A stretch of DNA of 64,000 nucleotides from an uncultured cyanobacterium (lineage in GTDB: Bacteria > Cyanobacteriota > Cyanobacteriia > Cyanobacteriales > CAWUOF01). Of this stretch, positions 5,179 to 35,933 are shown one piece after another. The first letter of the stretch is position 1, and the number at the start of each line of letters is the position of its first letter. Where the stretch lies: positions 384,001-448,000 of the forward strand of contig CAVUSO010000001.1 in the NCBI GenBank assembly GCA_963744145.1, read 5' to 3'. Below the pieces are notes generated by a model. That model saw only the letters and a list, made by a program, of their open reading frames with translations, did not search any database and was not told where the DNA came from. The translations under genes were made by a program, and so were the position numbers.

Positions 5179-5331
5179 TTTTGAGATTTTTTAAGAAAAT
5201 AACCAGGTTATTAATATTTTGATGCTAAAAAAGGTTAAAAATAAAAATTATGCAGCGATCGGCTCACTGACTGGGTAGACGGTGACTACTTTGAAATAGT
5301 TCCCTTAATTATGCAAGATTTAAGCGATTCT

Positions 5332-8300
5332 TTACCAAGGACTACCAATCATCGTAAAACCAGACCAATAGTAAGGATGGGCTAAATTAGATTTTTCTAG
5401 ATTACCCAGTTGAGATGGTAAAGACACATCACCACCTTCTCCACGAATGACACCACTATCAATAGTTATTTTTTTCTGAATCATGGAGATTTGTGCTTGA
5501 CGTAGTGCTTCAGATTTAATAGGGACTATTTTTAATTGTCGATAAAACTCACTCATCAATGCTAAAGTCCCTTCATCACTGACATACCAGAGACTCGCTA
5601 ATACCGATTTTACCCCAGCTTGCACGCTTAAACCAGCAAAACCTAATTCCGTTCTATCATCCTCAAGTGCTGTCCGACAAGCACTTAATACTAACAACTG
5701 AGTCGTGGGATGATTTAATTGTAATTGCTGAATCTGGTCTAAAGTTAACCTAGTATCTGAAAATTGAATATAGCTATTTTTAGCAACTCCTGGTTGGAAT
5801 TCTCCATGAGTAGCTAAATGCACAATGTCAAAATTACCAGAAGCACGCTGATTTCTTAGCTTCTCTAAAGTGAAATCTTTATTCAAGAAAGATTTTCCAG
5901 ACCAATTTTTTAGAATTGATGATAACTCAGCTGGTACTGAAGGTAAAGGACTTTGTTCTTTAAATTCGCTTGCTCCCATTGCCAACACTTGAGAATTTCT
6001 AATATCTTTATAGCTGGTATCAGTTAAACTGAGGCTAGGGATTAATCCAATACTATATTTTTCAATTAAAAAGTTTTTACCATCATGTAAAGCGGCGATC
6101 GGTAAGGAACGTAAACCACTATCCATGCTAAATAACAAAAGTTTAATTCCTTGTGCTTGTAATTCTTTTTCGATCGGAGCAATTAGCCACTTATAAAGCT
6201 GCTGAGAAGATGCTAAATAGGTAGTTGTATTGCGACGAGTAGGAGATGTAACTTCATAACGGAATCTTTGGATCATCGGCATCAAAATCTGATCAGAAAT
6301 TGGAACACTTTTAACCATCGATTTACCGTCAGCTGTTACTAATACTAATTGTAATTGATCCGGCAAAACAATCGTATAAAATAAAGCGGGTTTAATTCCA
6401 GTTTGGGAGTAAATATTAGTCAAGGAATCATGGATGTTTTTATTGGTCATGACCTCACTAAAATTTTTACCTAACAAACCTCCTAATTCTTGACTGCGGA
6501 TTGATTCAATTTGCGGAATAGCTTTAACTGGATTGCTGATGTCAATAGTGCTATTAATACTAGTATTAGAAAATGTTGCACTAGAAACTGGATTTGATAC
6601 TATACCTAAAGATGATGTTGGAGTTGGAGTTGGAGTTGGAGTTGGGGTTGAAGATGGAGAGCTAATTGCGATCGCAGATGGTTGTGGTTGTAAACTTTGA
6701 GTTGAGGGTATTTGTAAACTTTGAGTTTGGGGTATTTGTAAACTTTGGGTTGAGGGTATTTGCAAAATTTGGGTTTGGGGTATTTGCAAACTTTGAACCT
6801 GAGATGATTGCCAAGTTTGATTTTCACTTTGGGAGTGAGATAATTGTGTTTGACTTGGAGATAATTGCTGACTTTGAACTGGTTGAGATTGACTTTGGAC
6901 TGGTTGAGATTGACTTTGAACTGGTTGAGATTGACTTTGGACTGGTTGAGATTGACTTTGAACTGGTTGGGATTGACTACTTTGTGATTTAGATAATTCT
7001 CCACTTTGAGATGATTGAGGTTGATCACTATGAGATGATTGAGATTGATCGCTTTGAGATGATTGAGGTTGATCACTATGAGATGATTGAGGTTGATCGC
7101 TTTGAGATGATTGAGGTTGATCACTATGAGATGATTGAGGTTGATCACTATGAGATGATTGAGATTGGCTATTAAGAAGTAGAGATTTACTTTGATTACT
7201 TTGAGGTTGAGATCGATTACCTTGAGATTGATTACCTTGGAATTGAGATTGATTACCTTGAGATTGATTAACTTGGGATTGGGATTGATTAACTTGAGGT
7301 TGATTACCTTGGAATTGATTAACTTGAGGTTGATTAACTTGGGATTGGGATTGATTACCTTGGAATTGATTAACTTGAGGTTGATTAACTTGGGATTGGG
7401 ATTGATTAACTTGAGGTTGATTAACTTGGGATTGGGATTGATTAACTTGAGGTTGATTAACTTGGAATTGGGATTGATTACCTTGAGGTTGATTACCTTG
7501 GGATTGGGATTGATTACCTTGAGGTTGATTACCTTGGAATTGGGATTGATTACCTTGAGGTTGATTACCTTGGAATTGGGATTGATTACCTTGAGGTTGA
7601 TTAACTTGGGATTGGGATTGATTACCTTGGAATTGATTAACTTGAGGTTGATTACCTTGGAATTGGGATTGATTAACTTGAGGTTGATTAACTTGGGATT
7701 GGGATTGATTACCTTGGAATTGATTAACTTGAGGTTGATTAACTTGGGATTGGGATTGATTACCTTGGAATTGATTAACTTGAGGTTGATTAACTTGGGA
7801 TTGGGATTGATTACCTTGAGGTTGATTAACTTGGGATGGGGATTGATTAACTTGAGGTTGATTACCTTGGGATTGGAATTGATTACCTTGGGATTGATTA
7901 CCTTGAGGTTGATTACCTTGGGATTGATTACCTTGGGATTGATTACCTTGAGGTTGATTACCTTGGAATTGGGATTGATTACCCTGAGATTGATTACCTT
8001 GGGATTGATTACCTTGGGATTGATTACCTTGGGATTGATTACCTTGGGATTGATTACCTTGGGATTGATTACCTTGGGATTGATTACCTTGGGATTGATT
8101 ACCCTGAGATTGATTACCTTGGGATTGATTACCCTGAGATTGATTACTTTGAGATTGATTACCCTGAGATTGATTACCTTGGGATTGATTACCCTGAGAT
8201 TGATTACCTTGGGATTGATTACCCTGAGATTGATTACCTTGGGATTGATTACCCTGAGATTGATTACCTTGGGATTGATTACCCTGAGATTGACTACCCT

Positions 8301-10290
8301 GAGATTGACTACCTTGGGATTGACTACCCTGAGATTGACTACCTTGAGATTGACTACCCTGAGATTGACTACCTTGAGATTGATTACCTTGGGATTGACT
8401 ACCCTGAGATTGACTACCTTGGGATTGACTACCTTGAGATTGATTACCTTGGGATTGACTACCCTGAGATTGACTACCTTGGGATTGATTACCTTGAGAT
8501 TGAGATTGACTATTCTGAGAAGATGGAGATGGAGATGGAGATGGAGTTGGAGTTGGAGATGGAGATGGGGTTGGAGATTGAGTTGTATCTGGAGCAATCC
8601 CTGGACCTGGATCTATAATTTTTGGTGGAGCTGGTGGTGGAAGGGAGTCTGGGTTGTTAATACCATTAGTAATAGTAATATGATTACCGGTAATAGCAAT
8701 TAACTGACTAGGATTATTATTAATTGCTAAAATTTCAATATTCCCAGGTGCAGTCATTACTATCGGACCACCCCCATCTGGAATATAAATCTTCCCAACG
8801 CTAATTGTATTACCAGAAAGGGGATTTTCCGTAAAATTTGTGCCGCCTAATTCATCTTTGGAACCAGTAGGAGGATTATCTAAAGTTGTACGACCTGCTC
8901 GTATAACTAGTCCAGGTTGAGTATTTAAAGCATACTTGATTACATCAGGATCGTTAGTAGAAATTGAGCTATCTGGACTGGTAATAGTAATATTCCCACC
9001 GATGATTTGTCCACGAGCTTCTATTTTCAGTGAAGACCCAACATAGTCACCAAATGCAATAAATCCATCAGAACTGATGATTGGATCATACTTACTCTCA
9101 AATTGTCCTGGTTGTCCGTTTAGATTCGTAATCGAAAAATTCCCCCCACTACTAAAATGAGCATCTCCGGAAATAATCCCATTACTTACTAAACTAAAAT
9201 CACCTCCACTTTGTAATGGTGTTTCGGGATGGTTTAATGCTAAAATGTCAATACTGTTGTTACCTTGAATGAGCAAATTTCCCCCAGCTTTAGCTAGAAA
9301 GGGTTCGGTCACGCTATCCCGGATCGTGACTGTATTGTTAGCTAACAGATTTAAGTCTCCGGTTGTGAAAATTTGGCTTTCGGGTAAGGTAAGATTATGT
9401 GCAGCGAAAAGATTAGCTGTCTGGGTACTAAGATTTTTAACAACAACATCTCCATTGATAATTTGTAATCCTGAACCGCTTAACACAACTTCACCCTGTG
9501 CGTTAACTGTTACTCCTGTAGCATGACTACTATTACCCCCTGTTAGTAATTGGGGTAAGCTCACACCCTCTGTCTTAGCACTAGATATTTGTACATCCAG
9601 GCTTAATATATGGTTAGGTTCACTAATTCTGAAAATATTTTCACCCGGAACACTGGTAATGTTAACTTCTCCCTCTGGAGCGCTGAGGTTTCCGGTACTG
9701 ATGATTGTCCCACCAATTAGGTTTAAATTTTGTCCAGATTTAACGGTTAAGTTCCCCGTATTAATAATGCTTCCAGGGTTCAAGCTATTGAAAATAAAAC
9801 CATTGGGATTTCCGTTGAGGATTTGATAATTATTTACTCCATTGGTATTAAACCAGTTGCTCCCAAATCCAATCCCATTCGCAGTGGTCGCAGTGAAACT
9901 AGCAGGAACGTTTAAACTCCCATTCGCTCCAAATACTATCCCTCCAGGGTTTATTAAAAATAAGTTAGAATTTCCTCCCGTAACTTGAATTAACCCGTTA
10001 ATGATGGAGGGATTGCTGCTACTTATTCTACCAAGAATATTTTTAATTGTTGGATTTGATTGAAAATTTGCTATTTGTCCTGCATCTAGATTAAATTTTG
10101 TAAAGCTGTGAAAAAGATTAGTTTTATCCCCGGAAAGTTGCCCTCCACGGATGTTTAATTGATTCCCAACGGAATTAACAACCGTATTTGTGCCATCATG
10201 GGCAGGGATGATTGATTGAGCTAGTACCCAAGGACAAAAAGCTAGACTAAATATAGGTAGTGGAGCCAGAAATAGCAGAATTTGGTTCAT
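5332..10290 (-). CDS. Haemagglutinin-domain/CHAT protein with a very long Q/S/N/G-rich repeat linker
   Basis: Same N-terminal motifs; HLATHGEF and VLSACRTA dyad motifs; SQGNQ repeats. Confidence 0.9.
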   Translation of the reverse strand: MNQILLFLAPLPIFSLAFCPWVLAQSIIPAHDGTNTVVNSVGNQLNIRGGQLSGDKTNLFHSFTKFNLDAGQIANFQSNPTIKNILGRISSSNPSIINGLIQVTGGNSNLFLINPGGIVFGANGSLNVPASFTATTANGIGFGSNWFNTNGVNNYQILNGNPNGFIFNSLNPGSIINTGNLTVKSGQNLNLIGGTIISTGNLSAPEGEVNITSVPGENIFRISEPNHILSLDVQISSAKTEGVSLPQLLTGGNSSHATGVTVNAQGEVVLSGSGLQIINGDVVVKNLSTQTANLFAAHNLTLPESQIFTTGDLNLLANNTVTIRDSVTEPFLAKAGGNLLIQGNNSIDILALNHPETPLQSGGDFSLVSNGIISGDAHFSSGGNFSITNLNGQPGQFESKYDPIISSDGFIAFGDYVGSSLKIEARGQIIGGNITITSPDSSISTNDPDVIKYALNTQPGLVIRAGRTTLDNPPTGSKDELGGTNFTENPLSGNTISVGKIYIPDGGGPIVMTAPGNIEILAINNNPSQLIAITGNHITITNGINNPDSLPPPAPPKIIDPGPGIAPDTTQSPTPSPSPTPTPSPSPSPSSQNSQSQSQGNQSQGSQSQGSQSQGNQSQGSQSQGSQSQGSQSQGNQSQGSQSQGSQSQGSQSQGSQSQGSQSQGSQSQGNQSQGNQSQGNQSQGNQSQGNQSQGNQSQGNQSQGNQSQGNQSQSNQSQGNQSQGNQSQGNQSQGNQSQGNQSQGNQSQGNQSQGNQSQGNQSQGNQSQGNQSQFQGNQPQGNQSQGNQSQGNQPQGNQSQGNQFQSQGNQPQVNQSPSQVNQPQGNQSQSQVNQPQVNQFQGNQSQSQVNQPQVNQFQGNQSQSQVNQPQVNQSQFQGNQPQVNQFQGNQSQSQVNQPQGNQSQFQGNQPQGNQSQFQGNQPQGNQSQSQGNQPQGNQSQFQVNQPQVNQSQSQVNQPQVNQSQSQVNQPQVNQFQGNQSQSQVNQPQVNQFQGNQPQVNQSQSQVNQSQGNQSQFQGNQSQGNRSQPQSNQSKSLLLNSQSQSSHSDQPQSSHSDQPQSSQSDQPQSSHSDQPQSSQSDQSQSSHSDQPQSSQSGELSKSQSSQSQPVQSQSQPVQSQSQPVQSQSQPVQSQSQPVQSQQLSPSQTQLSHSQSENQTWQSSQVQSLQIPQTQILQIPSTQSLQIPQTQSLQIPSTQSLQPQPSAIAISSPSSTPTPTPTPTPTSSLGIVSNPVSSATFSNTSINSTIDISNPVKAIPQIESIRSQELGGLLGKNFSEVMTNKNIHDSLTNIYSQTGIKPALFYTIVLPDQLQLVLVTADGKSMVKSVPISDQILMPMIQRFRYEVTSPTRRNTTTYLASSQQLYKWLIAPIEKELQAQGIKLLLFSMDSGLRSLPIAALHDGKNFLIEKYSIGLIPSLSLTDTSYKDIRNSQVLAMGASEFKEQSPLPSVPAELSSILKNWSGKSFLNKDFTLEKLRNQRASGNFDIVHLATHGEFQPGVAKNSYIQFSDTRLTLDQIQQLQLNHPTTQLLVLSACRTALEDDRTELGFAGLSVQAGVKSVLASLWYVSDEGTLALMSEFYRQLKIVPIKSEALRQAQISMIQKKITIDSGVIRGEGGDVSLPSQLGNLEKSNLAHPYYWSGFTMIGSPW
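6600..8580 (-). repeat. Coding tandem repeat array (15-bp SQGSQ/SQGNQ/PQVNQ units, then SSHSDQPQ, SQSQPVQ and LQIPQTQ blocks)
   Basis: ttgattaccttggga-type 15-mers repeated dozens of times. Confidence 0.95.
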
Positions 10291-10561
10291 ATTTTTTTTT
10301 AAAATAAAGTTTCTTTGCCTATGCTCATTATTAGTATACCGCTCTTTAATTTAATTTTAGTAAAATTTAGTACATCTTTATATTGATTAGCCAGAGATAT
10401 TTTTCTACTACTCATCAGAGTATTCTATCATAAAAAAATAAATTCTTTTTTAAAGATTATGTAAAGTTTTTAAACAGCTAACCGCATCGTCAGGCACTAA
10501 TTTTCGACTAAATTCCCGAGCGATCGCCAAAATCAGGGGTGATACCCCTCGGGTCAATTAG

Positions 10562-13500
10562 CTACCAAGGACTTCCAATCATGGTAAATCCTGACCAATA
10601 ATAGGGATGAGCTAAATTAGATTCTTTCATATTATGTAGTTGGGATGGTAAAGATAAATCACCAGTTTCTCCACGAATTTTCCCACTATTAATAGTTACT
10701 TTTTTCTGAATCATGGAGATTTGTGCTTGACGTAGGACATCAGCTTTAATAGGAACTATTTTCAATTGTCGGTAAAACTCACTCATTAAGGCTAAAGTAC
10801 CTTCATCACTAACATACCAGAGACTGGCTAAAGCAGATTTTACTCCAGCTTGGACACTTAATCCGGCAAAACCTAGCTCAACTTGATCATCTTCAACTGC
10901 TGTGCGACAAGCACTTAGCACTAATAACTCTGTCGGAGGGTTATTTAATTGTAATTGCCGAATCTGGTCGAGAGTTAACTTGGTGTCTGAAAATTGAATA
11001 TAGCTATTTTTAGCGATTCCTGGTTTAAACTCTCCATGAGTAGCTAAATGCACAATTTCAAAAGCACCAGAGGAATGTTGATGTTGCAATTTTTCTAAAG
11101 TAAAGTCTTGATTTAAAAAAGATTTACCAGGCCAATTTTGGAGAATTGATGACAATTCAGTTGGCACCGCAGGTAGAGCATTTTGTTCTTTAAATATGCT
11201 CGCTCCCATGGCCAGCACTTGAGAATTTCTAATATCTTTATAGCTAGTATCAGTTAAACTGAAGCTAGGAATCAAGCCAATACTATATTTTTCCACTAAA
11301 AAATGTTTGCCATCATGCAAAGCGGCGATCGGCAAAGAACGCAAACCACTATCCATACTAAATAGTAAAGTCGTAATACCCTGTGATTGCAATTCTGGTT
11401 CTAAAGGGGCAATCAGCCACTGATAAAGTTGTTGAGCATATTGCAAGTAGCTAGTTAAATTGCGCTGTGAAGGAGCAGTTATTTCATTACGAAATTGTTG
11501 TACTATTGGCAGTAAAGTATCTCTCTTCACGGGAATGCTTTTCACCACAAATTTGCCTTCTGCTGTTACTAATACAAGTTGTAATTGATTGGGCAAAATA
11601 TTTGTATAAATTAAAGCTGGTTTAATCCCAACTTGAGAGTGAATTTTTCTCAAAGATTCACGGATATTTTCAGTAGTGAGCGTTTGACTAAAGTCTTTAC
11701 CTAAGAAACCACCTAATTCTTGACCACGCATTAATTCGATTTGCGGGATCGCACTATTGAGATTATTTGCATCAATCGGATGGTTGACAGGTGCTTGAAC
11801 ATTGATTGAATTAGATACTGAGGTTGATGTGGGCGCAGGTGCTGGTGTGGGCGCAGGTGCTGGTGTGGATGCAGGTGCTGGTGTGGATGCAGGTGCTGTT
11901 AATAGAACTGGAGTCGAGGGCAAAGATAAAGTTGAAACCTGTGTTTGCACTGATGTTGTTGGTACTAGGGTCTGAGGTGGTGCTGGAACACTAGGTGGTA
12001 AAGTCCCATTTTGTGGATTAGGAGTACCCGATGGTGGTGGATTAGAAGTACCCGATGGTGGTGGATTAGAAGTACCTGGTAGTGGTGGATTAGGAGTACC
12101 CGATGGTGGTGGATTAGAAGTACCTGGTAGTGGTGAATTAGGAGTACCCGATGGTGGTGGATTAGAAGTACCTGGTAGTGGTGGATTAGGAGTACCCGAT
12201 GGTGGTGGATTAGAAGTACCTGGTAGTGGTGAATTAGGAGTACCCGATGGTGGTGAATTAGGAGTACCCGATGGTGGTGAATTAGGAGTACCCGATGGTG
12301 GTGAATTAGGAGTACCCGATGGTGGTGGAGTTGGATTTATCCCACCATTGTTATTAGCAATATTAGAATTAGTCGTACCGTTAATAATATTAACAGTAGC
12401 ATTGGTACTCGTAACATTAGGCTGACTACTATTATTTATAATTGATAATGCTTGAATATTACCAGGTGCTGAAATTATCACAGGACCGCCAGGATTAGGA
12501 ATATTAACATTACCGATATTTACAGTATTGCCAGATCCTGGACTATTGCTAAAATTAACTCCTCCCACGCCATTTTGAGGTACATTGGGAGGATTATCTA
12601 AAGTTACAAGTCCAGCTCGCAAAACTAATCCAGGTTGATTATTTAAACTGTAAGCTATGACATCAGGATCATTACTATTAATTAATTGATCTGGACCAGT
12701 AATAGTAATATTTCCACCTGTGATTTTGCCAGTAGCTTCGATTTTTAGCGAAGCTCCATTATAATCACCAAAAGTAACATCTCCATTAGCACTAATAATT
12801 GGATCAAAAATACTAATAGATTTACCTGGTTCTCCCATTAGGTTAGTAATCGAAAAATTTCTCCCACTGCTAAAGTGAGCATCGACCGAGATATTACCAT
12901 TACTAACTAAACTAAAATTACCGTTACTTTGTAATGGAGTTTGAGGATGATTTAATGCTAGGATGTCAATTCCATTATTACCTTGAATGAGAAAATCTCC
13001 CCCTGATTTGGCTAGAAAAGATTGGGTAATAGTATCGCGAATTGTTACTGTATTTTGCGCTAAAAGATTCAAGTCTCCAGTTGTAATCAGTTGACTTTCT
13101 AATAGGCTTAGATTATGATTTGCGGAAATAGTAGCTGTTTGAGAAGTAAGATTTTTAACAACAATGTCTCCATAATTAATCGGAATATCTGAACCCGTTA
13201 ATACTATTTCACCCTGATTATTAATCTTTACATTTATAACATCATTATAATTACCACCGGTTAGTAATTTTGGTAAATTTACAGGAGTTAGAATTTGATT
13301 AGTCAGTGGAATATCCAGACTTAATATATGGTAAGGTTGACTAATATTAATTCTATTCGTACCAGGAATACTAGCGATCGTAATTTGTCCACCAGGAGCA
13401 TTTAAGTTGCCAGTGCTGATAATTGTCCCACCTAATAAGTTTAAATCTTGCCCAGGTTTAACAGTTAAGTTACCCCCATTGATGATCGTCTCAGGTTGTA

Positions 13501-14005
13501 AGCTTGTGAAAATAAAAGCACTAGGATTTCCTGATAATAATTGATAATTATTAGTTCCATTAGTATTAAACCAATTGTTCCCAAAAGCTATTCCATTTGC
13601 CGTAGTAGCAGTAAAAGCAGCAGGTAAGTTTAAACTAGCATTTTTTCCAAATAATATACCCGCTGGATTGATTAAAAATAAGTTAGCATTACCACCAGTT
13701 ACTTGAATTAAACCATTAATAATTGATGGACTTCCCGTAACTCGGCTTAAGATATTTTGGATATTTGGATTTACTTGAAAATTGGCAATTTGACCAGGAT
13801 TAAGGTTAAATTTATTAAAACTATGAAAAAGATTATTTTTATCCCCAGAAAGCTGTCCCCCAGAGATATTAAATTGTTGACCAACGGGACTGACGATCGT
13901 GTTGCTCCCATCATTTGCTGGTATTATAGGTTGTGCTAATACCGGAGCAAATAAGGTAACACTATATACATATATTCCAATTTGGATCAGAATAAATCGT
14001 TTCAT
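10562..14005 (-). CDS. Haemagglutinin-domain/CHAT protein with a Pro-rich linker
   Basis: Same domain motifs; PPSGTPNS repeats; CHAT C-terminus HPYYWSGFTMIGSPW. Confidence 0.9.
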   Translation of the reverse strand: MKRFILIQIGIYVYSVTLFAPVLAQPIIPANDGSNTIVSPVGQQFNISGGQLSGDKNNLFHSFNKFNLNPGQIANFQVNPNIQNILSRVTGSPSIINGLIQVTGGNANLFLINPAGILFGKNASLNLPAAFTATTANGIAFGNNWFNTNGTNNYQLLSGNPSAFIFTSLQPETIINGGNLTVKPGQDLNLLGGTIISTGNLNAPGGQITIASIPGTNRINISQPYHILSLDIPLTNQILTPVNLPKLLTGGNYNDVINVKINNQGEIVLTGSDIPINYGDIVVKNLTSQTATISANHNLSLLESQLITTGDLNLLAQNTVTIRDTITQSFLAKSGGDFLIQGNNGIDILALNHPQTPLQSNGNFSLVSNGNISVDAHFSSGRNFSITNLMGEPGKSISIFDPIISANGDVTFGDYNGASLKIEATGKITGGNITITGPDQLINSNDPDVIAYSLNNQPGLVLRAGLVTLDNPPNVPQNGVGGVNFSNSPGSGNTVNIGNVNIPNPGGPVIISAPGNIQALSIINNSSQPNVTSTNATVNIINGTTNSNIANNNGGINPTPPPSGTPNSPPSGTPNSPPSGTPNSPPSGTPNSPLPGTSNPPPSGTPNPPLPGTSNPPPSGTPNSPLPGTSNPPPSGTPNPPLPGTSNPPPSGTSNPPPSGTPNPQNGTLPPSVPAPPQTLVPTTSVQTQVSTLSLPSTPVLLTAPASTPAPASTPAPAPTPAPAPTSTSVSNSINVQAPVNHPIDANNLNSAIPQIELMRGQELGGFLGKDFSQTLTTENIRESLRKIHSQVGIKPALIYTNILPNQLQLVLVTAEGKFVVKSIPVKRDTLLPIVQQFRNEITAPSQRNLTSYLQYAQQLYQWLIAPLEPELQSQGITTLLFSMDSGLRSLPIAALHDGKHFLVEKYSIGLIPSFSLTDTSYKDIRNSQVLAMGASIFKEQNALPAVPTELSSILQNWPGKSFLNQDFTLEKLQHQHSSGAFEIVHLATHGEFKPGIAKNSYIQFSDTKLTLDQIRQLQLNNPPTELLVLSACRTAVEDDQVELGFAGLSVQAGVKSALASLWYVSDEGTLALMSEFYRQLKIVPIKADVLRQAQISMIQKKVTINSGKIRGETGDLSLPSQLHNMKESNLAHPYYWSGFTMIGSPW
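12010..12330 (-). repeat. Coding 24-bp tandem repeat (PPSGTPNS/PLPGTSNP)
   Basis: ggagtacccgatggtggtgaatta-type units. Confidence 0.9.
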
Positions 14006-17291: not shown

Positions 17292-18266
17292 CTAGATTAT
17301 TGAACTAGCAGTTTCTCTTAGCCGCTCTACATCGCGCATCGGTGGCGCACCAAAAAGCCGCTTGTACTCGCGGTTAAAGTGGGAGGCATCTTCATAACCT
17401 ACACGATAGGCAGCACTGGTAGCGTCAAGGTTTTCCCCCAGCATTAGACGACGAGCCTCCTGGAGCCGTAGCTGTTTCTGGAACTGCAAGGGACTCATGG
17501 CAGTGACAGACTTGAAGTGATGGTGAAAGCTAGAGACACTCATTCCTAGCTCTTGGGCGATGCTTTCAATGCGAAGCTGCTGGTTGAAGTCTTTACGCAG
17601 TCGATCGATAGCTCTAGCAATGTGGTGGGTGTAACCACCCAGAACTGCAATATGACGGAGCCGACTACCTTGCTCTCCCATCAGGAGTCGGTAAATGATT
17701 TCTCTTGTGACTAGTGGCATCAGAACCTGAGCTTCGGAGGGCGCGTCCAAAAGCCTAACCAGCCTTAATACAGCATCCAGTAGCAGTGTATTCAATGGAC
17801 TCACATCTATCCCTTTTACATTACTACGGCTTTGTGGTGAGGGATAGCCTGCCTCAACCATGACTGAACCGACCAGGGTGGGGTTGAGATCAAGGCGAAG
17901 ACTAAGGTAAGGTTGATGCTTGGATGCTTCCAGAATTTGGCTGACAATTGGCAGCTCGACCGTAGCAAGTAGATAATGGATCGGGTCGTACTGATAGCGA
18001 TCGTTGCCCAGAAGGATTTCTTTACTGCCTTGAGCAATCACACAAAAGGCAGGGATAGAAACACTATGACAGGATTCCGTAGGCCAAGAGGAACGTTTCA
18101 GGTGTAATCCTTTGAGCGGCTCAATCATCCCATCATCACGAATTGCCTGTGCAATCCGTTCAGCCAGTTCATCTCTGTTGGCTTGCACTCTGACAGCCTC
18201 GCGCTTTGCCTGCTGGTCGTTCATTAAATCCACATTGGACTTTTCACTCGTTTTGGCAGCGTTCAT
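17292..18266 (-). CDS. AraC family transcriptional regulator (AraC_N + HTH, YqhC-like)
   Basis: FCVIAQGSKE; MSVSSFHHHFKSVTAMSPLQFQKQLRLQEAR; VGYEDASHFNREYKRLFG. ATG at 18266 (a later Met is possible). Confidence 0.9.
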   Translation of the reverse strand: MNAAKTSEKSNVDLMNDQQAKREAVRVQANRDELAERIAQAIRDDGMIEPLKGLHLKRSSWPTESCHSVSIPAFCVIAQGSKEILLGNDRYQYDPIHYLLATVELPIVSQILEASKHQPYLSLRLDLNPTLVGSVMVEAGYPSPQSRSNVKGIDVSPLNTLLLDAVLRLVRLLDAPSEAQVLMPLVTREIIYRLLMGEQGSRLRHIAVLGGYTHHIARAIDRLRKDFNQQLRIESIAQELGMSVSSFHHHFKSVTAMSPLQFQKQLRLQEARRLMLGENLDATSAAYRVGYEDASHFNREYKRLFGAPPMRDVERLRETASSII

Positions 18267-18592
18267 AAAAATGCTCGGCAAGTGGGAAACTCAGTTCTTT
18301 AGAACTGGGAGGGAAACGGCTCGTGCGGTTTTAACCGCCGTGGATATTGGAAAGGGAGGTAATTTTACCTCCCTTTCCCTCCCTTGCGGGGTGATGTTCG
18401 CTTCGACCTGTTATCTGAGCTTGTTAAGCTTGTAGCACTGTTTCAGTGACCTTAAAACTGTTTAACTACAAGCGACAGAGCGGGGAACTAGCGTCGCATT
18501 CCGAGGTGTCGTGACTCAGATAACGTCTCCCCGTGGGGTCTGGTCAGTACAGCTCTTTCAGAGCTACAGTCCTAAAGGACTGGGTTACTGAC
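18267..18592 (-). mobile_element. Non-autonomous IS200/IS605-type element carrying an IscB-type omega-RNA (HEARO) scaffold but no ORF
   Basis: Minus strand starts GTCAGTAACCCAGTCCTTTAGGACTG...TACTGACCAGACC and ends with a subterminal hairpin CCCAGTTCTAAAGAACTGAG followed by ATGAA. Confidence 0.8.
18379..18592 (-). ncRNA. omega-RNA / HEARO-like scaffold
   Basis: Ordered motifs GTCAGTA...TACTGACCAGACC, ACGTTATCTGAG paired with CTCAGATAAC, GGAATGC-CTAGTTCC, CTCTGTCG, TTAAACAG...CAGTG, GTCGAAGCGAACATCACCCCGCAAGGGAG. Confidence 0.78.
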
Positions 18593-18801
18593 TGCTAAGT
18601 TTGCAGGATTGTACAACGATCTTAGACGATCATTCTATCGCTTGCCCTTTGAGATTCTTAGAATGAAGCTAAAGCAATAAAAAATGATTCCAGCTTCACC
18701 CTAGCATTCTGGATTTTTATTCAAGAGAGAAGGCAGTTTTGATTGGGCAAGGGACTCGCCTACTGATCACCAAAATGGCATCAAGCGAAGGAATTAAGAA
18801 C

Positions 18802-19188
18802 ATGGACATCAAAAGAAGTGGCTCACAACCTTCTACCAAAGGACCGGCTGATTATTTTACCGGCACTGTCCGGGTTGACCCCCTATTCGAGGCACAAGAT
18901 CCAGCACGCACGCTCGGTGTCAGTGTCACGTTTGAACCTGGTGCGCGAACTGCATGGCACACCCACCCCTTGGGACAGACCCTGATCGTGACGGCTGGCT
19001 GCGGTCTTGCCCAACGCTGGGGCGGACCGATCGAGCAAATTCGACCGGGGGACGTGATCTGGTTTCCACCAGGTGAGAAGCATTGGCACGGCGCTACGGC
19101 AACCACAGCCATGACGCATATTGCCATTCAGGAACTGCTTGATGGCAAACCCGTGGACTGGATGGAGCAGGTCAGCGACCAACATTAG
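18802..19188 (+). CDS. Cupin domain protein
   Basis: [20 protein letters not shown]...GEKHWHGA...MTHIAIQE. Confidence 0.9.
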
Positions 19189-19220
19189 GCGCAGACAGTA
19201 AACCAATAGAAGCATTATTT

Positions 19221-20279
19221 ATGTACAAAACGAAAGCTTATTCTGCAATCAGTGCCACATCACCATTGTCCTTTACCCAGATCCCACGGCGTGATCCAAC
19301 CGAACAAGATGTTCAGATTGAAATCCTCTTCTGCGGGATCTGTCACTCCGACCTCCATTCAGTGCGTAATGAGTGGAGCAGCATCATGCCCACTGTCTAT
19401 CCGATTGTCCCAGGTCATGAGATCGTAGGTCGTGTCACCAAGGTCGGTTCGGCAGTTACCAAGTACAAGCCCGGTGACCTTGCCGCAGTCGGCTGTATGG
19501 TAGACTCGGACGGCACTTGCCCCCATTGCCAGGCGCATCTTGAACAGTTTTGTTCAAACCTGACCCTCACCTTCAATTCCCCTGACAAACACCTGGTCGG
19601 TGTCACCTACGGTGGTTACTCCGATAGCATCGTTGTCCATGAACGCTTTGTGCTGCGAATTCCCTCCAACCTCAATCTCGCTGGAGCTGCGCCGCTCCTT
19701 TGTGCTGGAATCACCACCTATTCGCCTATGCGTCACTGGGGTGTCACCAAGGGCAAGAAGGTAGGCGTGGTCGGTCTCGGTGGGCTAGGCCACATGGGTG
19801 TGAAGTTCGCCCGTGCGTTCGGAGCCCATGTCGTCGTCTTCACCACCTCGCCCAACAAGACGGAAGACGCGCTTCGCCTCGGTGCTGACGAAGTTGTCGT
19901 CTCCCGCCACACTGACGAAATGCAGAAACATTCTGGCAGCTTCGATTTCATCCTCGACACTGTCTCTGCCCAGCACGACATCAACGCCTATCTCAACCTG
20001 CTCTGTCGTGACGGCAACATCACCCTGGTTGGCGCACCTGAGAAGCCCCTGGATGTTGTAGCATTCAGCCTGATCATGGGACGGCGCAGTCTCTCCGGCT
20101 CGATCATCGGCGGCATTGCTGAAACCCAGGAGATGCTTGACTTTTGCAGCAAGCACAATATCACCGCAGATGTCGAAGTCATTCCCATCCAGAAGGTGAA
20201 CGAAGCCTATGAGCGACTGCTCAAGTCCGATGTGAAGTACCGCTTCTGTATCGATATGGAATCACTTAAATCTGAATAA
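19221..20279 (+). CDS. Zn-dependent NAD(P) alcohol dehydrogenase (cinnamyl-ADH/AdhC type)
   Basis: CGICHSD, GHEIVG, APLLCAGITTYSP, GLGGLG. Confidence 0.92.
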   Translation: MYKTKAYSAISATSPLSFTQIPRRDPTEQDVQIEILFCGICHSDLHSVRNEWSSIMPTVYPIVPGHEIVGRVTKVGSAVTKYKPGDLAAVGCMVDSDGTCPHCQAHLEQFCSNLTLTFNSPDKHLVGVTYGGYSDSIVVHERFVLRIPSNLNLAGAAPLLCAGITTYSPMRHWGVTKGKKVGVVGLGGLGHMGVKFARAFGAHVVVFTTSPNKTEDALRLGADEVVVSRHTDEMQKHSGSFDFILDTVSAQHDINAYLNLLCRDGNITLVGAPEKPLDVVAFSLIMGRRSLSGSIIGGIAETQEMLDFCSKHNITADVEVIPIQKVNEAYERLLKSDVKYRFCIDMESLKSE

Positions 20280-20288
20280 CTAAGGTAG

Positions 20289-21314
<1,026 letters not shown>

Positions 21315-21375
21315 GTCAGTGCTAGAATCATTGCATAATCAGTAGGTTTTTTCAACTAAAACTTTAAAAGTGGTC

Positions 21376-21422
21376 TCAGGTGTTAGGGTTTTAATCCTGA
21401 TACCTGAGTGCTTGTTGGCCTA
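21376..21422. repeat. Palindromic repeat / possible terminator, copy 2
   Basis: tcaggtgttagggttttaatcctgatacctgagtgcttgttggccta, near-identical to 17245-17290. Confidence 0.7.
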
Positions 21423-21468
21423 TTGAGATTAGATTTTTGTTGAAAAAAGCGATCGTGAGGCTTTTTAG

Positions 21469-22182
21469 ATGAACATGAATGCTAACCATCAGAATCAGTA
21501 TGCGTTAGTGACAGGTGGCAATAAAGGGATTGGGTTTGCCATTTGCCAAGGGCTGCTGCAAGCTGGGTTTGAGGTGATTTTGGCGGCGCGATCGCTCGAC
21601 AAAGCCAAGCAAGCTATTGAACAATTGCAATCGGCTCATGTGCATCCTCTATTACTGGATGTCGCGGATGACAACACCATCCATCAAGCGGTTAGGTCGT
21701 TGCATCAGGACCTGGGGCAGCTTGATGTCTTGATCAACAATGCAGGCATTTATCCCGATCAAGGTGTCAATATCCTCACCATTGAGCGGACTTTGTTGGC
21801 TCAAGCGATGCAGACCAATGCCTTTGGTGCCATTCGGACTGCCCAGGCGTTTTTGCCGCTATTAGAAAAAGCCTCTGCTGCTCGCATCATCAATGTTTCC
21901 AGTGGCTATGGGGCGCTTGATAGCTTGTCTGCTAACGTCCCCAGCTATTGCCTATCAAAGCTGGCGCTGAATGGGGCAACCATCATGCTGGCAGAGGCGC
22001 TGCAACCGAAAGGCATTGCGGTGTATGCCATGTGTCCCGGTTGGGTGCGAACCGATATGGGTGGAGCATCTGCAACCCGATCGCCCGAGCAAGGCGCAGA
22101 TACCGCTATCTGGTTGGCGACAGAAGCTTCACTTGATTTGAGTGGGAAGTTTTTCCGCGATCGTCAAGAGATATCCTATTAA
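21469..22182 (+). CDS. Short-chain dehydrogenase/reductase (carbonyl reductase-like)
   Basis: TGGNKGIG, NNAG, YCLSK, CPGWVRTDMGG. Confidence 0.92.
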   Translation: MNMNANHQNQYALVTGGNKGIGFAICQGLLQAGFEVILAARSLDKAKQAIEQLQSAHVHPLLLDVADDNTIHQAVRSLHQDLGQLDVLINNAGIYPDQGVNILTIERTLLAQAMQTNAFGAIRTAQAFLPLLEKASAARIINVSSGYGALDSLSANVPSYCLSKLALNGATIMLAEALQPKGIAVYAMCPGWVRTDMGGASATRSPEQGADTAIWLATEASLDLSGKFFRDRQEISY

Positions 22183-22304
22183 TCACATATCTATACCACT
22201 CCTTAACAAGAAAATTTGCCTAGCTCAGTAGTCCCCTGTCTGGATATATCAATAGTGCAAATTTACGAATTGATAGGGAAGTCCCCTCACTGTTAACTAA
22301 AGAG

Positions 22305-23270
22305 ATGAACATTTTAATAGTTCGAGCCCATCACGAACCTAAAAGCTTTTCCAACGCTTTAGCCGACCAAGCTGCCAAAACGCTCAGTGAACTCGGAAAT
22401 AGCGTCGTCTTATCGGATCTTTACGCCTCGGATTTTGACCCAGTATCCGATCGCCGCAATTTTAGCAGTATCAAAAACCCCGATTATCTGAAGCAACAAG
22501 TTGAAGAAGCTTATGCCAGTGAAGTTGACGGGTTTGCTAGTAATTTGGAGTCTGAGATAAAAAAGCTCGAAGCAGCTGAACTGCTTATTTTTTCTTTTCC
22601 GCTGTGGTGGTTTGGTATGCCAGGGATTCTTAAGGGTTGGATTGATCGAGTTTTTGCTTCGGGGCGAATTTACGGCGGTGATCAGATTTATGAAAACGGA
22701 CTTGGCCAATCACGGAAACGAGGACTAATCTTGATGACCACAGGAGGTGGGCCAGATGTCTATAGTGGTTACGGAGTCAATCCATCAATGGCCACTATCC
22801 TAGCCCCGATCCAGCACGGCATCTATTGGTTCAATGGTTTTCTGCCGTTGGAGCCCTTTATCGCGTGGAGCCCAGCTCGCATCTCGCCTGAAGAGCGCAA
22901 GGCATATCTGGATCAGCTAGATCATCGACTGCGTAATCTCGACAGTGAAAAGGTTCAAGTCTTGCCGCCAATAAGCGATTTTCCCAACTGGGGTAAAGAC
23001 ACAAAAAAACGCTTCATGGTCACCGCCTCAAGGCTTAAAGTGGCCGATGAAACCTATCAGCAACTCGTACCAGAGGAAGTCAAACAGATCGCAGAACTTA
23101 AACGACAGGGAGTCCTGCTTAGCTCGTATATCGGCAGTCCGTCTGATCTAAGCTGGCATGCTTTTCTTGTCTTTCGCGAAACCTCATCAGAGGCTGTACA
23201 CCATCATTTACAAAGGCTGCCTCTTGCCCCTTACCTTAGTTTTGAAGTCACAGAGTTGCTACAAATGTGA
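22305..23270 (+). CDS. NAD(P)H:quinone oxidoreductase (flavodoxin-2) with a C-terminal muconolactone-isomerase-like domain
   Basis: AHHEPKSFS, SDLY, FPLWWFGMPGILKGWIDRVF; extra ~90 aa ending LQRLPLAPYLSFEVTEL. Confidence 0.8.
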   Translation: MNILIVRAHHEPKSFSNALADQAAKTLSELGNSVVLSDLYASDFDPVSDRRNFSSIKNPDYLKQQVEEAYASEVDGFASNLESEIKKLEAAELLIFSFPLWWFGMPGILKGWIDRVFASGRIYGGDQIYENGLGQSRKRGLILMTTGGGPDVYSGYGVNPSMATILAPIQHGIYWFNGFLPLEPFIAWSPARISPEERKAYLDQLDHRLRNLDSEKVQVLPPISDFPNWGKDTKKRFMVTASRLKVADETYQQLVPEEVKQIAELKRQGVLLSSYIGSPSDLSWHAFLVFRETSSEAVHHHLQRLPLAPYLSFEVTELLQM

Positions 23271-26626: not shown

Positions 26627-27325
26627 TTAGCTGTTTTTGAGCTGATTACTTAATTTTTCCACGAAAGCAATATATTCCGGAGATTGCAAACCTGTTTGTA
26701 AAATTGTCAATACCTGCGACATTTTCCCTGCTAATAACTCATTAACTGCTAACCACAATCCCGGAAAAACCTGACTTCGCAAAATTCCATCAGCATCTGG
26801 TATTAAGTCGAGATATTCACCTGTTTCTAGATAAAACCAGCTTAATTTTTGATCAAGAACTTGCCAGACAATATATTCTTTCACTCCATTCCGACGATAA
26901 GCTTGTTTTTTAGCATGGAGATCGATCGCAATACTACTAGCGGCAATTTCCACGATTAATTCTGGTGCTCCTTCGATATAATCATCATCGCTTAATTTAG
27001 TTTGACCACCCGCTTCCTGCTCAATCAGGAGAACTAGATCAGGTTGAGGTTGATTATCTAAATCTAGCCGTACCGTAGGTTCAACTCCTGAAACAACACC
27101 AGGTGTTACAATTGTATAATTGAACAACCAACAGGTCAGCGCAGCATGGGGTTGACTGTGACTGTGAAAACGTAGTGCAGCACCCATATAAACAATTCCT
27201 TCGATTAATTCAGCTTTTGGCAAATTCGACATCACGTTATAGCGACGTTCAAATTCATAACGGGTTAGCTTGTCACCGTTGGTGAGAAAGGGAATTTCTC
27301 TGTGTTTAGTGAATGGGTTCAACAT
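26627..27325 (-). CDS. Uma2 family (DUF820) endonuclease-fold protein
   Basis: KAELIEGIVYM, QPD, GAPELIVEIAASS, GVKEYIVW. Confidence 0.9.
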   Translation of the reverse strand: MLNPFTKHREIPFLTNGDKLTRYEFERRYNVMSNLPKAELIEGIVYMGAALRFHSHSQPHAALTCWLFNYTIVTPGVVSGVEPTVRLDLDNQPQPDLVLLIEQEAGGQTKLSDDDYIEGAPELIVEIAASSIAIDLHAKKQAYRRNGVKEYIVWQVLDQKLSWFYLETGEYLDLIPDADGILRSQVFPGLWLAVNELLAGKMSQVLTILQTGLQSPEYIAFVEKLSNQLKNS

Positions 27326-30049: not shown

Positions 30050-31198
30050 TACCAATTCTCTAAATACCGACTACAGATAGTGCCTCTAATATATAGGCTC
30101 GTCCCGTAATTGAGGCAATTACTTTTGAATTCATCTTTTCTAGTTCTTTACTAATTAAAAGTCTTAATTCATCTAAGTTTCTTGGTAATTCCCATCTCAA
30201 TCCCTTTTTGAGATACTGCCATACCTGTTCGATTGGATTTGATTCAGGACAATGGGATGGTTGAAACATTAAAATAACGTTTTTAGGAATTACCAACTTT
30301 TTAGCTTTATGAAAACCACCATTGTCTAACTGAATGATCAAAATACTATCCGAAAAATGCGCGGCTACTAAGTCTAAAAATATCTGAAAGCATTGACTAT
30401 TGAGATGAGTAAACTCGTAAAAGAAATGTTCCCCTGTCTTTGGCTCTACTACGCCATAAATATAAGTCGCTTGAAATTTCCACTGCACTTTACCAATTGG
30501 TTTTACCCCACGAATGGTAATTTTTCTCCCACTAATCGTTTTCATGCCGATCCGCGTTTCATCTTGACATAAAAATCTGACTTTATCTCCTAAACTCATT
30601 ACTGTTATGGCAAACCAACTCAGCATAGCTAGGTCCTCTGCCAAGTGATTTCTAAAATTATCTAACTTTTTTTTTGACTGTTCTGTACTTTTCGGCCTGG
30701 CGATTTTTGGTGAGGCTTTTAGTTTATAATGCACTAATTGATGAACGGTTTTATATTTAGCTTCTATCCCAAGGGTGGATGATAGCCATTGACAAATTTC
30801 CCCATAACTATTAAATCCTTCCTCTTCATTTAGTCGTTTTTCTAAACTTTTTACCGCCCAGTCAGGAATTTTTCTCGGTCGGTCCTGTACCCACTTTTTT
30901 CCCCAGATATTTGGCCAATCCTCCTTGACGGTATTTGGCTAACCAATCTTGAACGGTAACTCGATTTCTGCCCAAGATTTCAGCAACTTCTGTGACTGTT
31001 TTAGCTTTGTTTATCTTGAGTAGATATAATGCTTGTAATCGTTCTTTTCCTGGACCAGTTTTTTCCACTGCGAGCAATTTCTTCAGCTCGGCTTCACTTT
31101 CCTTAATGTCTAGGTGATAAACTCCTGCCATATTTTTCCTTCAACTCTACTCAAATTATACTCTACACTATCTGTAGTCAAAGTTGCAAGAATTGGTA
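30050..31198 (-). mobile_element. IS630-family insertion sequence with TAA target duplication
   Basis: Imperfect TIRs TACCAATTCT...GACTACAGATAG at both ends; TAA at 30047-49 and 31199-201. Confidence 0.9.
30060..31131 (-). CDS. IS630 transposase (HTH + DDE), split by a one-base insertion near 30883
   Basis: QDETRIG, LDNGGFH, PESNPIEQVW; GTG joins RPRKIPDW if one C is removed. Confidence 0.88.
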
Positions 31199-31214: not shown

Positions 31215-31799
31215 ATGGCTACAGCAACAAAAGAGAAAACCCAATCGAGAAAAGCATTTACAGTAGAGGAGTTTTATCGACTGGGTGAAATTGGAATACT
31301 CAAAGCAGATGAGCGAGTAGAGTTAATCGAAGGGGATATTATCGAAATGGCTGCGATCGGGACTCGTCATGCAGGTTGTGTTAATTCTTTAATAGAGGTT
31401 TTTGCCGAACTAATTTTCAAAAAATCTGCTTTGTTGCTAGTCCAAAATCCGATTCAGTTAAGTAATTATTCACAGCCTCAACCAGATATCGCAGTAGTTA
31501 GACGAGATCCTCTTTTCCGTGGAACCAAACACCCCCAACCCCAAGAGATATTTCTAGTTATTGAAGTTTCCGATACTACCCTAAAAGACGATCAAAAAAA
31601 AGCATTAATTTATGCTAAATCTGGTATCTCCGAATATTGGATCGTGAATTTAGATGCTCAATTAATCGAAGTTTATCGTCATCCTACTGTTGATGGTTAT
31701 CGCGATCGCCTATTATTCAAATCGGCGGAAACTATTTCACCTTTAGCTTTTCCTGATTTAGTTATTGCGGTTGATGATATTTTGCCTAAAATCCTTTAA
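31215..31799 (+). CDS. Uma2 family protein (array copy A)
   Basis: [33 protein letters not shown]. Confidence 0.92.
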   Translation: MATATKEKTQSRKAFTVEEFYRLGEIGILKADERVELIEGDIIEMAAIGTRHAGCVNSLIEVFAELIFKKSALLLVQNPIQLSNYSQPQPDIAVVRRDPLFRGTKHPQPQEIFLVIEVSDTTLKDDQKKALIYAKSGISEYWIVNLDAQLIEVYRHPTVDGYRDRLLFKSAETISPLAFPDLVIAVDDILPKIL

Positions 31800-33990: not shown

Positions 33991-34575
33991 ATGGTTACAG
34001 CCATAAAAGAGCAAAGTTTATTAAGAAAAGTGTTTACCGTAGAGGAATTTTATAAACTGAGTGAAGTGGGGATCATCAAAGCAGATGAGCGAGTAGAATT
34101 AATCGAAGGGGATATTATCGAAATGGCAGCAATTGGGACTCGTCATGCAGGTTGTGTAAATTTACTAGTTGATATTTTTACCGAACCACCAATTAAAAAA
34201 TCTGCTTTACTGCTAGTCCAAAATCCAATCTTATTAGATAATTATTCACAGCCTCAACCCGATATTGCCGTAGTCAAGCGAGACTCTATTTTCTGTGGAA
34301 CCAAGCACCCTCAACCTCAAGATATCTTCTTAGTTATTGAAGTTGCTGATACTACTCTAAAAGATGATCGTCGCAAAGCTTTGATTTATGGTTTAGCTGG
34401 TATTTACGAATATTGGATTGTTAATTTAGATGCTCAATTAATCGAAGTTTATCGTCACCCTACTGTTGATGGTTATCGCGATCGCCTATCTTTCAAATCG
34501 GCAGAAACTATTTCACCTTTAGCTTTTCCTGATTTAGTTATTGCGGTTGATGATATTTTGCCTAAAATCCTTTAA
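33991..34575 (+). CDS. Uma2 family protein (array copy B)
   Basis: Paralogue of 31215. Confidence 0.92.
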   Translation: MVTAIKEQSLLRKVFTVEEFYKLSEVGIIKADERVELIEGDIIEMAAIGTRHAGCVNLLVDIFTEPPIKKSALLLVQNPILLDNYSQPQPDIAVVKRDSIFCGTKHPQPQDIFLVIEVADTTLKDDRRKALIYGLAGIYEYWIVNLDAQLIEVYRHPTVDGYRDRLSFKSAETISPLAFPDLVIAVDDILPKIL

Positions 34576-34687: not shown

Positions 34688-35272
34688 ATGGTTACAGCCA
34701 TAAAAGAGCAAAGTTTATTAAGAAAAGCGTTTACCGTAGAGGAATTTTATAAACTGAGTGAAGTGGGGATCATCAAAGCAGATGAGCGAGTAGAATTAAT
34801 TGAAGGGGATATTATCGAAATGGCAGCAATTGGGACTCGTCATGCAGGTTGTGTAAATTTTTTTAACGATATTTTTACGGAACCAAAAATTAAAAAAACT
34901 GCTTTGGTGTTAGTCCAAAACCCAATCTTATTAAATAATTATTCCCAGCCTCAACCCGATATTGCCATAGTTAGAAGAAAACCAGATTTTTATAAAGATG
35001 GACACCCCCAACCCCAAGAGATATTTTTAGTGATTGAAGTTTCAGACACTACATTAAAAGACGATCGAAAAAAAGTATTAATTTATGCTAAATCTGGTAT
35101 CTCCGAATATTGGATCGTGAATTTAGATGCTCAATTAATCGAAGTTTATCGTCACCCTACTGTTGATGGTTATCGCGATCGCCTATCTTTCAAATCGGCG
35201 GAAACTATTTCACCTTTAGCCTTTCCTGATTTAGTTATTGCGGTTGATGATATTTTGCCGAAAATTGTTTAA
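34688..35272 (+). CDS. Uma2 family protein (array copy C)
   Basis: Paralogue; 72-bp leader shared with copy B. Confidence 0.92.
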   Translation: MVTAIKEQSLLRKAFTVEEFYKLSEVGIIKADERVELIEGDIIEMAAIGTRHAGCVNFFNDIFTEPKIKKTALVLVQNPILLNNYSQPQPDIAIVRRKPDFYKDGHPQPQEIFLVIEVSDTTLKDDRKKVLIYAKSGISEYWIVNLDAQLIEVYRHPTVDGYRDRLSFKSAETISPLAFPDLVIAVDDILPKIV

Positions 35273-35716: not shown

Positions 35717-35933
35717 TCTCTGACAGGCAAGATGCCTGTCCCACCATTCATGCCAAATCTTACTGTACTTCATCAACAGGTCATCCGCTGTATCCCAAGT
35801 AATCCTGGGATATTTTTTTGTGTAATCAAATAATTAACAATAAGTATAGAATAATACATTTAAAAACGCAGATGGCTGCGCTTTTGAGGGATGGGACATA
35901 GTAAAATATTGAGTGAGTAAAGAGGTCAAGGAT

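Follow-up and report, generated by a model that had tools for sequence, protein, structure and literature searches.

A protein-less omega-RNA element at the annotated start codon of a cyanobacterial cmrA-type regulator gene

We analyzed a 64-kb stretch of contig CAVUSO010000001.1 from an uncultured cyanobacterium, referred to here as the window (64,000 nucleotides; G+C content 39%). Between an AraC-family regulator gene on the minus strand and a divergent cupin gene on the plus strand lies a minus-strand element of 326 bp that contains no open reading frame (ORF) and runs from G18592, the first base of a 5'-GTCA terminus, to T18267. It carries an omega-RNA scaffold of the HEARO family, normally associated with the nuclease gene iscB, and it adjoins the annotated start codon of the regulator gene. 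The features of the locus are:

17292–18266, minus strand: cmrA-type AraC-family regulator gene, 324 aa, ORF intact (Pfam AraC_N and HTH_18)
18263–18266, minus strand: ATGA target site, host DNA, not duplicated, its ATG being the annotated cmrA start codon (empty sites in 93 loci listed; ATGAA in 78)
18267–18342, minus strand: left-end tail, with hairpin CGGCGGTTAAAACCGC (18340–18325), subterminal hairpin CAGTTCTAAAGAACTG (18307–18292) and a conserved GAGTTTCCCAC...TTTTT terminus (alignment with other element ends)
18349–18378, minus strand: perfect 14-bp palindrome with a 2-nt loop (arms 18349–18362 and 18365–18378), at the site of the iscB Shine-Dalgarno/start-codon hairpin of relatives
18381–18390, minus strand: small hairpin CCCGCAAGGG, 3' of the Rfam model; full-length relatives have it too, just 5' of the iscB ribosome-binding site (10 relatives compared)
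18391–18592, minus strand: omega-RNA/HEARO scaffold, the right-end side of the transposon, starting with the 5'-GTCA terminus (Rfam RF02033)
18567–18582, minus strand: right-end subterminal hairpin CAGTCCTTTAGGACTG, also a stem-loop of the omega-RNA; it folds and resembles the left-end hairpin of the same element
18593–18608, minus strand: 16 nt of host DNA directly 5' of the scaffold, TCCTGCAAACTTAGCA, in the IscB guide position (from the sequence; guide position as given in passages of the Meers 2023 preprint)
18597–18616, minus strand: conserved box of 20 nt, TTGTACAATCCTGCAAACTT, in the control region between the cupin gene and cmrA, holding a -10-like TACAAT (18613–18608); at least 119 genome loci match it exactly, among them loci of Nostoc, Microcoleus and Leptolyngbya
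18739–23270, plus strand: divergent oxidoreductase cluster of cupin, zinc alcohol dehydrogenase, aldo-keto reductase, SDR and flavodoxin-like NAD(P)H oxidoreductase genes (Pfam and NCBIfam; context only)

A HEARO scaffold without its nuclease gene

A search with Rfam cmscan matched the scaffold to the HEARO model RF02033, the omega-RNA of the OMEGA IscB system, over model positions 1–211 of 211, with a score of 134.5 bits (gathering score 83; E-value 9.5e-28). This was the only HEARO match in the whole window, and a permissive scan found no second HEARO copy there. An earlier reading of this DNA, made from its letters and predicted ORFs (the sequence-only reading), had described a HEARO omega-RNA without a nuclease gene, had placed a 326-bp element at 18592–18267 on the minus strand, and had proposed Infernal cmscan against the Rfam HEARO model as a check. 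The full-length match and the absence of an ORF support that description, and the boundaries were correct. IscB-linked relatives score 140.5–154.6 bits on the same model and contain non-standard pairs in numbers similar to those of the window copy, in which the 11-bp long-range stem is fully paired. The position and orientation of the scaffold relative to the expected iscB start are as in the HEARO family. By contrast, the window copy has no adjacent, co-oriented IscB ORF with RRXRR, RuvC and HNH domains, a neighbour that defined the HEARO family in its original description, and the 14-bp palindrome replaces the native start-codon hairpin.

Full-length relatives (loci L007, L008 and L129–L136), all of which carry an IscB ORF, have two small hairpins 0–40 nt past the end of the HEARO model. 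The second of these encloses the Shine-Dalgarno sequence and AUG of iscB, and its stem covaries (GGAC/GUCC versus GCAC/GUGC). The window copy keeps the first hairpin (18390–18381) and has the palindrome in place of the second; the whole iscB ORF, ~1.28 kb in the relatives, is gone, with no ORF between 18391 and the tail. The sequence-only reading had noticed a perfect 14-bp inverted repeat at 18349–18378, where iscB would start, and the comparison with relatives agrees with it on both counts. Folded as DNA, the palindrome reaches -15.8 kcal/mol (z-score -6.2), and 0 of 200 shuffled sequences folded as well. No other copy of the palindrome was found in the window, in the 136 fetched loci or in the plasmid collection. 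In two plasmid copies of the family, iscB is split by a group II intron (Rfam Intron_gpII with a reverse transcriptase ORF; L002, 295–1924, and L008, 3146–5675).

We also compared the ends of the element with those of related elements. The last ~80 nt align with seven other ends (L001, L002, L005, L006, L007, L128 and L136), and homology stops at RTGA or ATAA. In three IscB elements, from Dolichospermum DET69 (L002), Trichormus variabilis plasmid C (L007) and Calothrix (L136), the homologous tail comes after the stop codon of iscB. It occurs as a solo end in L005, and it ends two Oscillatoria TnpB elements in which the gene is on the opposite strand (L006 and L128, the latter added by tail-only plasmid searches). 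The remaining match, L001, is a second protein-less copy, 448 bp long and located on a Dolichospermum plasmid, with a different internal deletion and other filler. The inner stem of the tail hairpin varies among these ends yet stays complementary (TTCT/AGAA, CCCT/AGGG, CACT/AGTG and GGCT/AGCC). At the other end of the window element, GTCA occupies 18592–18589, and homology with L001 begins exactly at GTCAGTAACCC. The resemblance between the right-end and left-end hairpins within one element is also seen in L001 and L007. The element thus has subterminal hairpins (18582–18567 and 18307–18292) instead of terminal inverted repeats, together with 5'-GTCA, as ISC and IS200/IS605 ends do; the IS200/IS605-type subterminal hairpin noted in the sequence-only reading is real, and the end that contains it is shared with IscB and TnpB elements.

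These ends closely resemble those of a described group. The main text of Kapitonov, Makarova and Koonin (2016; PMC4810608) reports cyanobacterial ISC families with an N|ATGA target, 5'-GTCA termini and subterminal hairpins, and ISC 3' termini shared with TnpB-only (IS605B) elements that have their gene on the other strand. The window element resembles members of this N|ATGA group, such as the Microcystis aeruginosa element ISC1-1_MA, in its 5'-GTCA, its insertion upstream of ATGA without duplication, its subterminal hairpins, its 3' terminus shared with TnpB-only elements and its cyanobacterial host; unlike the group as described in that text, it lacks iscB and is only 326 bp long.

The element retains three parts: the entire right end, serving also as the omega-RNA/HEARO scaffold; a pair of short hairpins that follows this scaffold; and a left-end tail of ~76 nt with its subterminal hairpin. 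It has lost the iscB ORF of ~1.3 kb, and a perfect 30-nt palindrome marks the deletion point. With its right end, omega-RNA and left-end tail retained and iscB absent, it has both ends of its parent insertion sequence and no coding capacity, as do elements like palindrome-associated transposable elements (PATEs) and miniature inverted-repeat transposable elements. One account of the deletion is that a full-length omega-RNA-iscB element inserted at this site and lost iscB on the spot, with the palindrome as a repair scar, and that it never moved in its present short form. Consistent with this account, only one copy is known (window, plasmids and at least 119 loci), the palindrome is unique in everything searched, and L001 carries a different internal deletion, indicating that such deletions arise independently. 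However, both ends and the complete omega-RNA with its post-model hairpin are kept cleanly, and clean ends with an omega-RNA are, in the passages of the Meers 2023 preprint that describe them, the usual make-up of mobilisable PATE-like derivatives. We regard decay in place as a serious, if tentative, possibility.

Empty sites and the target motif

A first comparison matched the 43 nt upstream of the scaffold to cupin-AraC intergenic regions on two cyanobacterial plasmids. Scanning with the most conserved 20 nt of the upstream flank returned at least 119 loci, and the counts that follow are among the matches listed. In 93 of the 119 (class A), the box is followed by 4–5 nt (AGAA in 80 loci) and ATGAACGCTGCC, uninterrupted. 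The first five bases of the regulator gene in these 93 loci are ATGAA (78 loci), ATAAA (5), ACGAA (4), ATTAA (4), ATGAC (1) and ATGAG (1); in the window, the bases 3' of the element are ATGAAC (18266–18261). No part of the element was detected by blastn in any of the 119 loci. In the closest of the loci listed, which are 88% and 83% identical to the window in the two flanks, the flanks abut with only two unaligned bases, AGCA in the window versus AGAA. Once the element is removed, the gap between box and ATG in the window copy is 4 nt, AGCA as compared with AGAA in most relatives. Because none of the listed loci contains the element and the flanks abut, we conclude that the insertion was precise, caused no target duplication and is confined to this lineage, a single Nostoc-like one. 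What entered the site, immediately 5' of ATGA, was a full-length parent or an element already reduced to the mini form. The sequence-only reading had predicted that removing the element would join the upstream region to the AraC start codon and had named orthologues that retain the sequence as its refutation; the empty sites agree with the predicted junction to within one base, none of the listed loci retains the sequence as ancestral, and the 93 class-A loci support insertion directly 5' of the ATGA that holds the annotated start codon of the AraC/CmrA-type gene.

Among the other loci listed, 16 of the 119 form a second, paralogous cupin-cmrA class with the same 20-nt box and a conserved spacer of ~105 nt before ATGAACGCTGCAAGAACG. 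This long-spacer class occurs on the Scytonema (L003) and Leptolyngbya (L004) plasmids and in several genomes. The remaining 10 loci comprise five class-A loci with small indels and five unrelated ones. The ~105-nt spacer between box and ATG in L003 and L004 had suggested a deletion accompanying the insertion, and we rejected this idea because those loci belong to the minority paralogous class. The same two plasmid loci bear on the view that the 326 bp are not an insertion at all, being either ancestral to the cmrA locus or HEARO-like by chance. In the first comparison, box and ATG were ~105 nt apart in these loci and no clean empty site was seen; beyond that comparison the view found no support; the loci belong to a separate class, the 93 class-A loci give exact empty sites, and the HEARO E-value is of the order of 1e-27. 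We consider this view refuted.

An empty site is also available for one full-length relative. The element on plasmid C of T. variabilis ATCC 29413 (L007) lies where the parA stop and the parB start overlap in ATGA; the corresponding empty site, on a Scytonema plasmid of 96% identity, reads ...TCAACT|ATGAGCC.... Like the window element, L007 is therefore a start-codon insertion (here of parB) verified by an empty site; its omega-RNA core is 82% identical to that of the window copy, its tail is homologous and its junctions have the same GTCA...|ATGA form. Unlike the window copy, L007 encodes an IscB of 427 aa. The annotated parA of plasmid C (L007, 2152–2946 and 2919–3137) runs 28 nt into the omega-RNA before its stop.

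HEARO elements reportedly adjoin ATGA or GTGA. We examined the 3' flank in 12 independent copies, namely that of the window, four that the first plasmid search had found and seven of eight loci with an IscB sharing at least 71% identity with the protein of plasmid C (L134 duplicates L133 and was counted once); identical sister-strain copies, L008 (3' end not in the fetched sequence) and the TnpB elements L006 and L128 were left out. The flank is ATGA in 10 copies and GTGA in two, such that RTGA is present in 12/12, whereas the fifth base is A in five copies, C in two, G in two and T in three. The two TnpB elements have ATAA as their flank, and neither is located at the start of a gene. Since the fifth base is not conserved, the motif is RTGA; the common ATGA flank expected by the sequence-only reading was thus found, in the wider form RTGA, and the five-base ATGAA was not.

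Of the 12 copies, 5 have an annotated start codon as their flanking ATG (4 of 11 if the window copy is set aside). The genes concerned are cmrA (window), a helix-turn-helix regulator (L002), parB (L007) and genes for an 88-aa protein with an HNH motif (L130) and an 82-aa hypothetical protein (L131). From the RTGA sites of the window, the expected share of starts is 18/950 (1.9%), or 18/202 (8.9%) if sites are limited to those that are non-coding or at a start. Relative to these expectations, the excess has P values of 1.7e-6 and 2.6e-3, respectively, for 5/12 copies, and of 3.8e-5 and 1.3e-2 for 4/11, under a null model that uses our own ORF calls in one window, with a small sample in which annotated starts of short ORFs are uncertain. 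The sequence-only reading had suggested that an ATG-containing target motif would steer insertions to start codons, and by these counts target sites coincide with start codons above chance. We consider the start-codon share a new but modest observation. A statement that ATGA-targeting ISC elements prefer start codons was not found in the literature searched, which comprised main texts or passages and did not extend to supplements, Weinberg 2009 or Altae-Tran 2021. Start codons are not discussed in the main text of Kapitonov et al. (2016; PMC4810608), from which the word "codon" is absent.

The start-codon insertions are best explained by the ATG inside the target motif, by the survival of insertions that spare ORFs and by the need of an IscB-type omega-RNA for transcription from outside. 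Extended to the whole group, this would mean that N|ATGA ISC/omega-RNA elements land systematically on start codons, including overlaps such as that of parA and parB, where they would capture a host promoter for the guide, leave the ORF intact and turn the omega-RNA into a 5' leader. At the cmrA locus, expression of an electrophile-stress regulator would then depend on folding, processing or excision of the omega-RNA. In this general form we consider the proposal unlikely.

Guide, transcription and origin of the element

According to passages of the Meers 2023 preprint, an omega-RNA of this type is bounded by the right end, its guide lies outside the element and transcription must start outside. 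The sequence-only reading had placed the guide in the flanking host DNA, and the 16 nt at 18608–18593, TCCTGCAAACTTAGCA, do stand in the guide position. They match the orthologous empty sites except at C18594, which is A in 80 of the 93 class-A loci listed. The window contains a single other match to these 16 nt, with three mismatches, which is at chance level. Upstream of the element there are two -10-like hexamers, TACAAT (18613–18608) and TAGAAT (18637–18632). Use of TAGAAT as a -10 element would leave a guide of more than 16 nt; a consensus scan supports neither hexamer. Since that scan found no site in 18100–18900, a promoter role of the 20-nt box is only inferred. The putative leader, consisting of guide flank, omega-RNA and tail, folds strongly (z-score -5.8).

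Taken together, the complete scaffold, the shared ends and the empty sites argue that the element derives from an ISC transposon (ISC being the branch of the IS200/IS605 superfamily that encodes IscB), lacks a protein gene and was inserted at an N|ATGA target; with TnpA acting in trans and read-through from host DNA as the presumed mechanism, we give this explanation a probability of roughly 0.78. By analogy with the family mechanism, a Y1 (HUH) TnpA supplied in trans and acting on single-stranded DNA would have made the insertion. A transcript entering the element from the cmrA control region would comprise, in order, the guide taken from the flank, the omega-RNA scaffold, the tail and the cmrA ORF, such that the omega-RNA would now form a cmrA 5' leader of ~335 nt instead of a few nt. 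A precisely excised allele would read ...AAACTTAGCA|ATGAACGC. If a compatible IscB is encoded elsewhere in the genome, the guide TCCTGCAAACTTAGCA and the target-adjacent motif (TAM) ATGA would direct cleavage of this empty site, favouring retention of the element. Standalone omega-RNAs are reported to act in trans.

Several observations weigh against parts of this explanation. The guide differs from most orthologous empty sites at one TAM-proximal base, AGCA versus AGAA, and if TACAAT (18613–18608) is the -10 element, the transcribed guide would be only 8–10 nt long. A simple scan for sigma-70 consensus promoters and terminators found 0 sites of either kind in 18100–18900. Pfam detected no IscB, Y1 transposase (TnpA) or TnpB domain in the 64-kb window, all 59 ORFs of 100 aa or longer being covered. 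Searches of the window, of 650 kb of related loci and of plasmids revealed no second copy of the mini-element, and a pattern from the omega-RNA core matched 0 loci in a collection of genome contigs that does not include the host genome. With respect to the start-codon target, 13 of the 93 orthologous loci listed lack an ATG at the cmrA start, and a second ATGAAC (18224–18219 in the window) may serve there; the status of the cmrA ATG as a start codon rests on annotation because these orthologues carry ATA, ACG or ATT. Finally, the 3' end was assigned by alignment rather than by an empty site for 10 of the 12 copies, and the start-codon null model was built on our own ORF calls in one window.

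The absence of partner genes from the 64-kb window raises the question of whether the element is still active. It may be an inert relic in a host without a compatible IscB or TnpA, in which the RNA has no guide function and the sole effect of the insertion is a long structured cmrA leader. Consistent with a relic, no partner gene is present in the 64-kb window, the guide would be too short if TACAAT were used, and the guide has one mismatch to related empty sites. A tblastn search of the window with a related IscB as query likewise gave no match at E <= 10. On the other hand, the omega-RNA scores as well as IscB-linked copies and has a fully paired 11-bp long-range stem. The hairpins are intact and the palindrome is perfect, which speaks against a long period of neutral decay, and IscB proteins of this family are very numerous in Nostocales, with at least 120 clusters sharing 78% identity or more with the query. 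We consider an inert relic possible but rather doubtful.

The position of the element, between a conserved control box and the ATG of an intact cmrA ORF, together with the strong fold of the leader, would also fit recruitment of the omega-RNA leader to control cmrA, through structure-dependent translation or as an excision switch for the oxidoreductase cluster. However, the element occurs in one lineage only (0 of the 119 related loci listed), nothing indicates selection on the window copy for regulation, and the strong folding is explained by the omega-RNA itself. Such a regulatory role is very improbable.

A protein-less ISC derivative has a close parallel in the PATE-like derivatives of Geobacillus stearothermophilus. 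Passages of the Meers 2023 preprint establish that protein-less PATE-like elements with omega-RNAs exist, and the G. stearothermophilus examples, like the window element, combine transposon ends and a guide-RNA scaffold with no protein gene and are presumed to depend on TnpA and a nuclease in trans. Those derivatives are described there as multi-copy within one genome and mostly of the TnpB type. By contrast, the window element is present in one copy, is of the IscB type and has its guide on the 5' side, and so depends on host transcription. Every component described here, that is the HEARO/omega-RNA, the ISC ends, the N|ATGA target and protein-less derivatives, is already in print. Because the N|ATGA target and protein-less omega-RNA derivatives appear in the parts of Kapitonov et al. 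(2016) and Meers (2023) cited above, the sequence-only reading overstated the novelty of the element. The value of the locus is as an illustration with one testable side hypothesis: it is a clean, base-resolved natural case of an IscB-type guide RNA surviving without its nuclease, with the empty site present in ~90 related genomes. It also illustrates an ATG-containing target motif in practice: 5 of 12 family members coincide exactly with a start codon, a position at which the guide can be transcribed from a host promoter. If the start-codon bias holds genome-wide, it would explain how elements with an outside guide secure expression, and such elements would routinely rewrite the 5' leaders of host genes.

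Host genes and other features of the window

The closest relatives of the regulator are proteins 79–88% identical to it from Nostoc and other filamentous cyanobacteria, several of which are named CmrA by NCBI. Passages of PMC6018408 trace the name to a Pseudomonas aeruginosa regulator that responds to toxic electrophiles. "Detoxification cluster" is a reasonable label for the neighbours on the cupin side, taken from the names of the genes. In the cupin-cmrA intergenic region (window 18593–18800, ~200 nt), most positions are conserved among 91 loci that represent several cyanobacterial orders, a level far above what is usual for intergenic DNA. The 13 of 93 orthologous loci listed in which the first cmrA ATG is replaced by ATA, ACG or ATT are mostly from Microcoleus. 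The second ATGAAC, at 18224–18219, lies 42 nt downstream of the cmrA start, and some CmrA-type proteins in databases are ~313 aa long as compared with 327 aa, suggesting that the true start may differ between species.

Elsewhere in the window, eight ORFs of the Uma2 putative endonuclease family (PF05685) lie within 30 kb (26627–27325, 31215–31799, 33991–34575, 34688–35272, 35913–36515, 53480–53872, 53947–54567 and 54593–55216). Other transposase fragments, with a DDE_3 domain and an IS1595-type zinc ribbon, are located at 30060–30734 and 38965–39333. Three consecutive giant ORFs of 1699, 1652 and 1147 aa (79–14005, minus strand) each combine an N-terminal TPS secretion domain with a C-terminal CHAT protease-like domain. 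A palindromic unit with arms of 24–26 nt, ...GGACAGRCAAGATGYCTGTCCCACAA..., occurs in two copies, 43572–43643 and 53200–53267, with weak microRNA-like Rfam matches, and is probably a small repeated hairpin element. A weak NsiR1-like match at 59895–59945 on the minus strand (27.5 bits; cut-off 39 bits) would fit a cyanobacterium that forms heterocysts.

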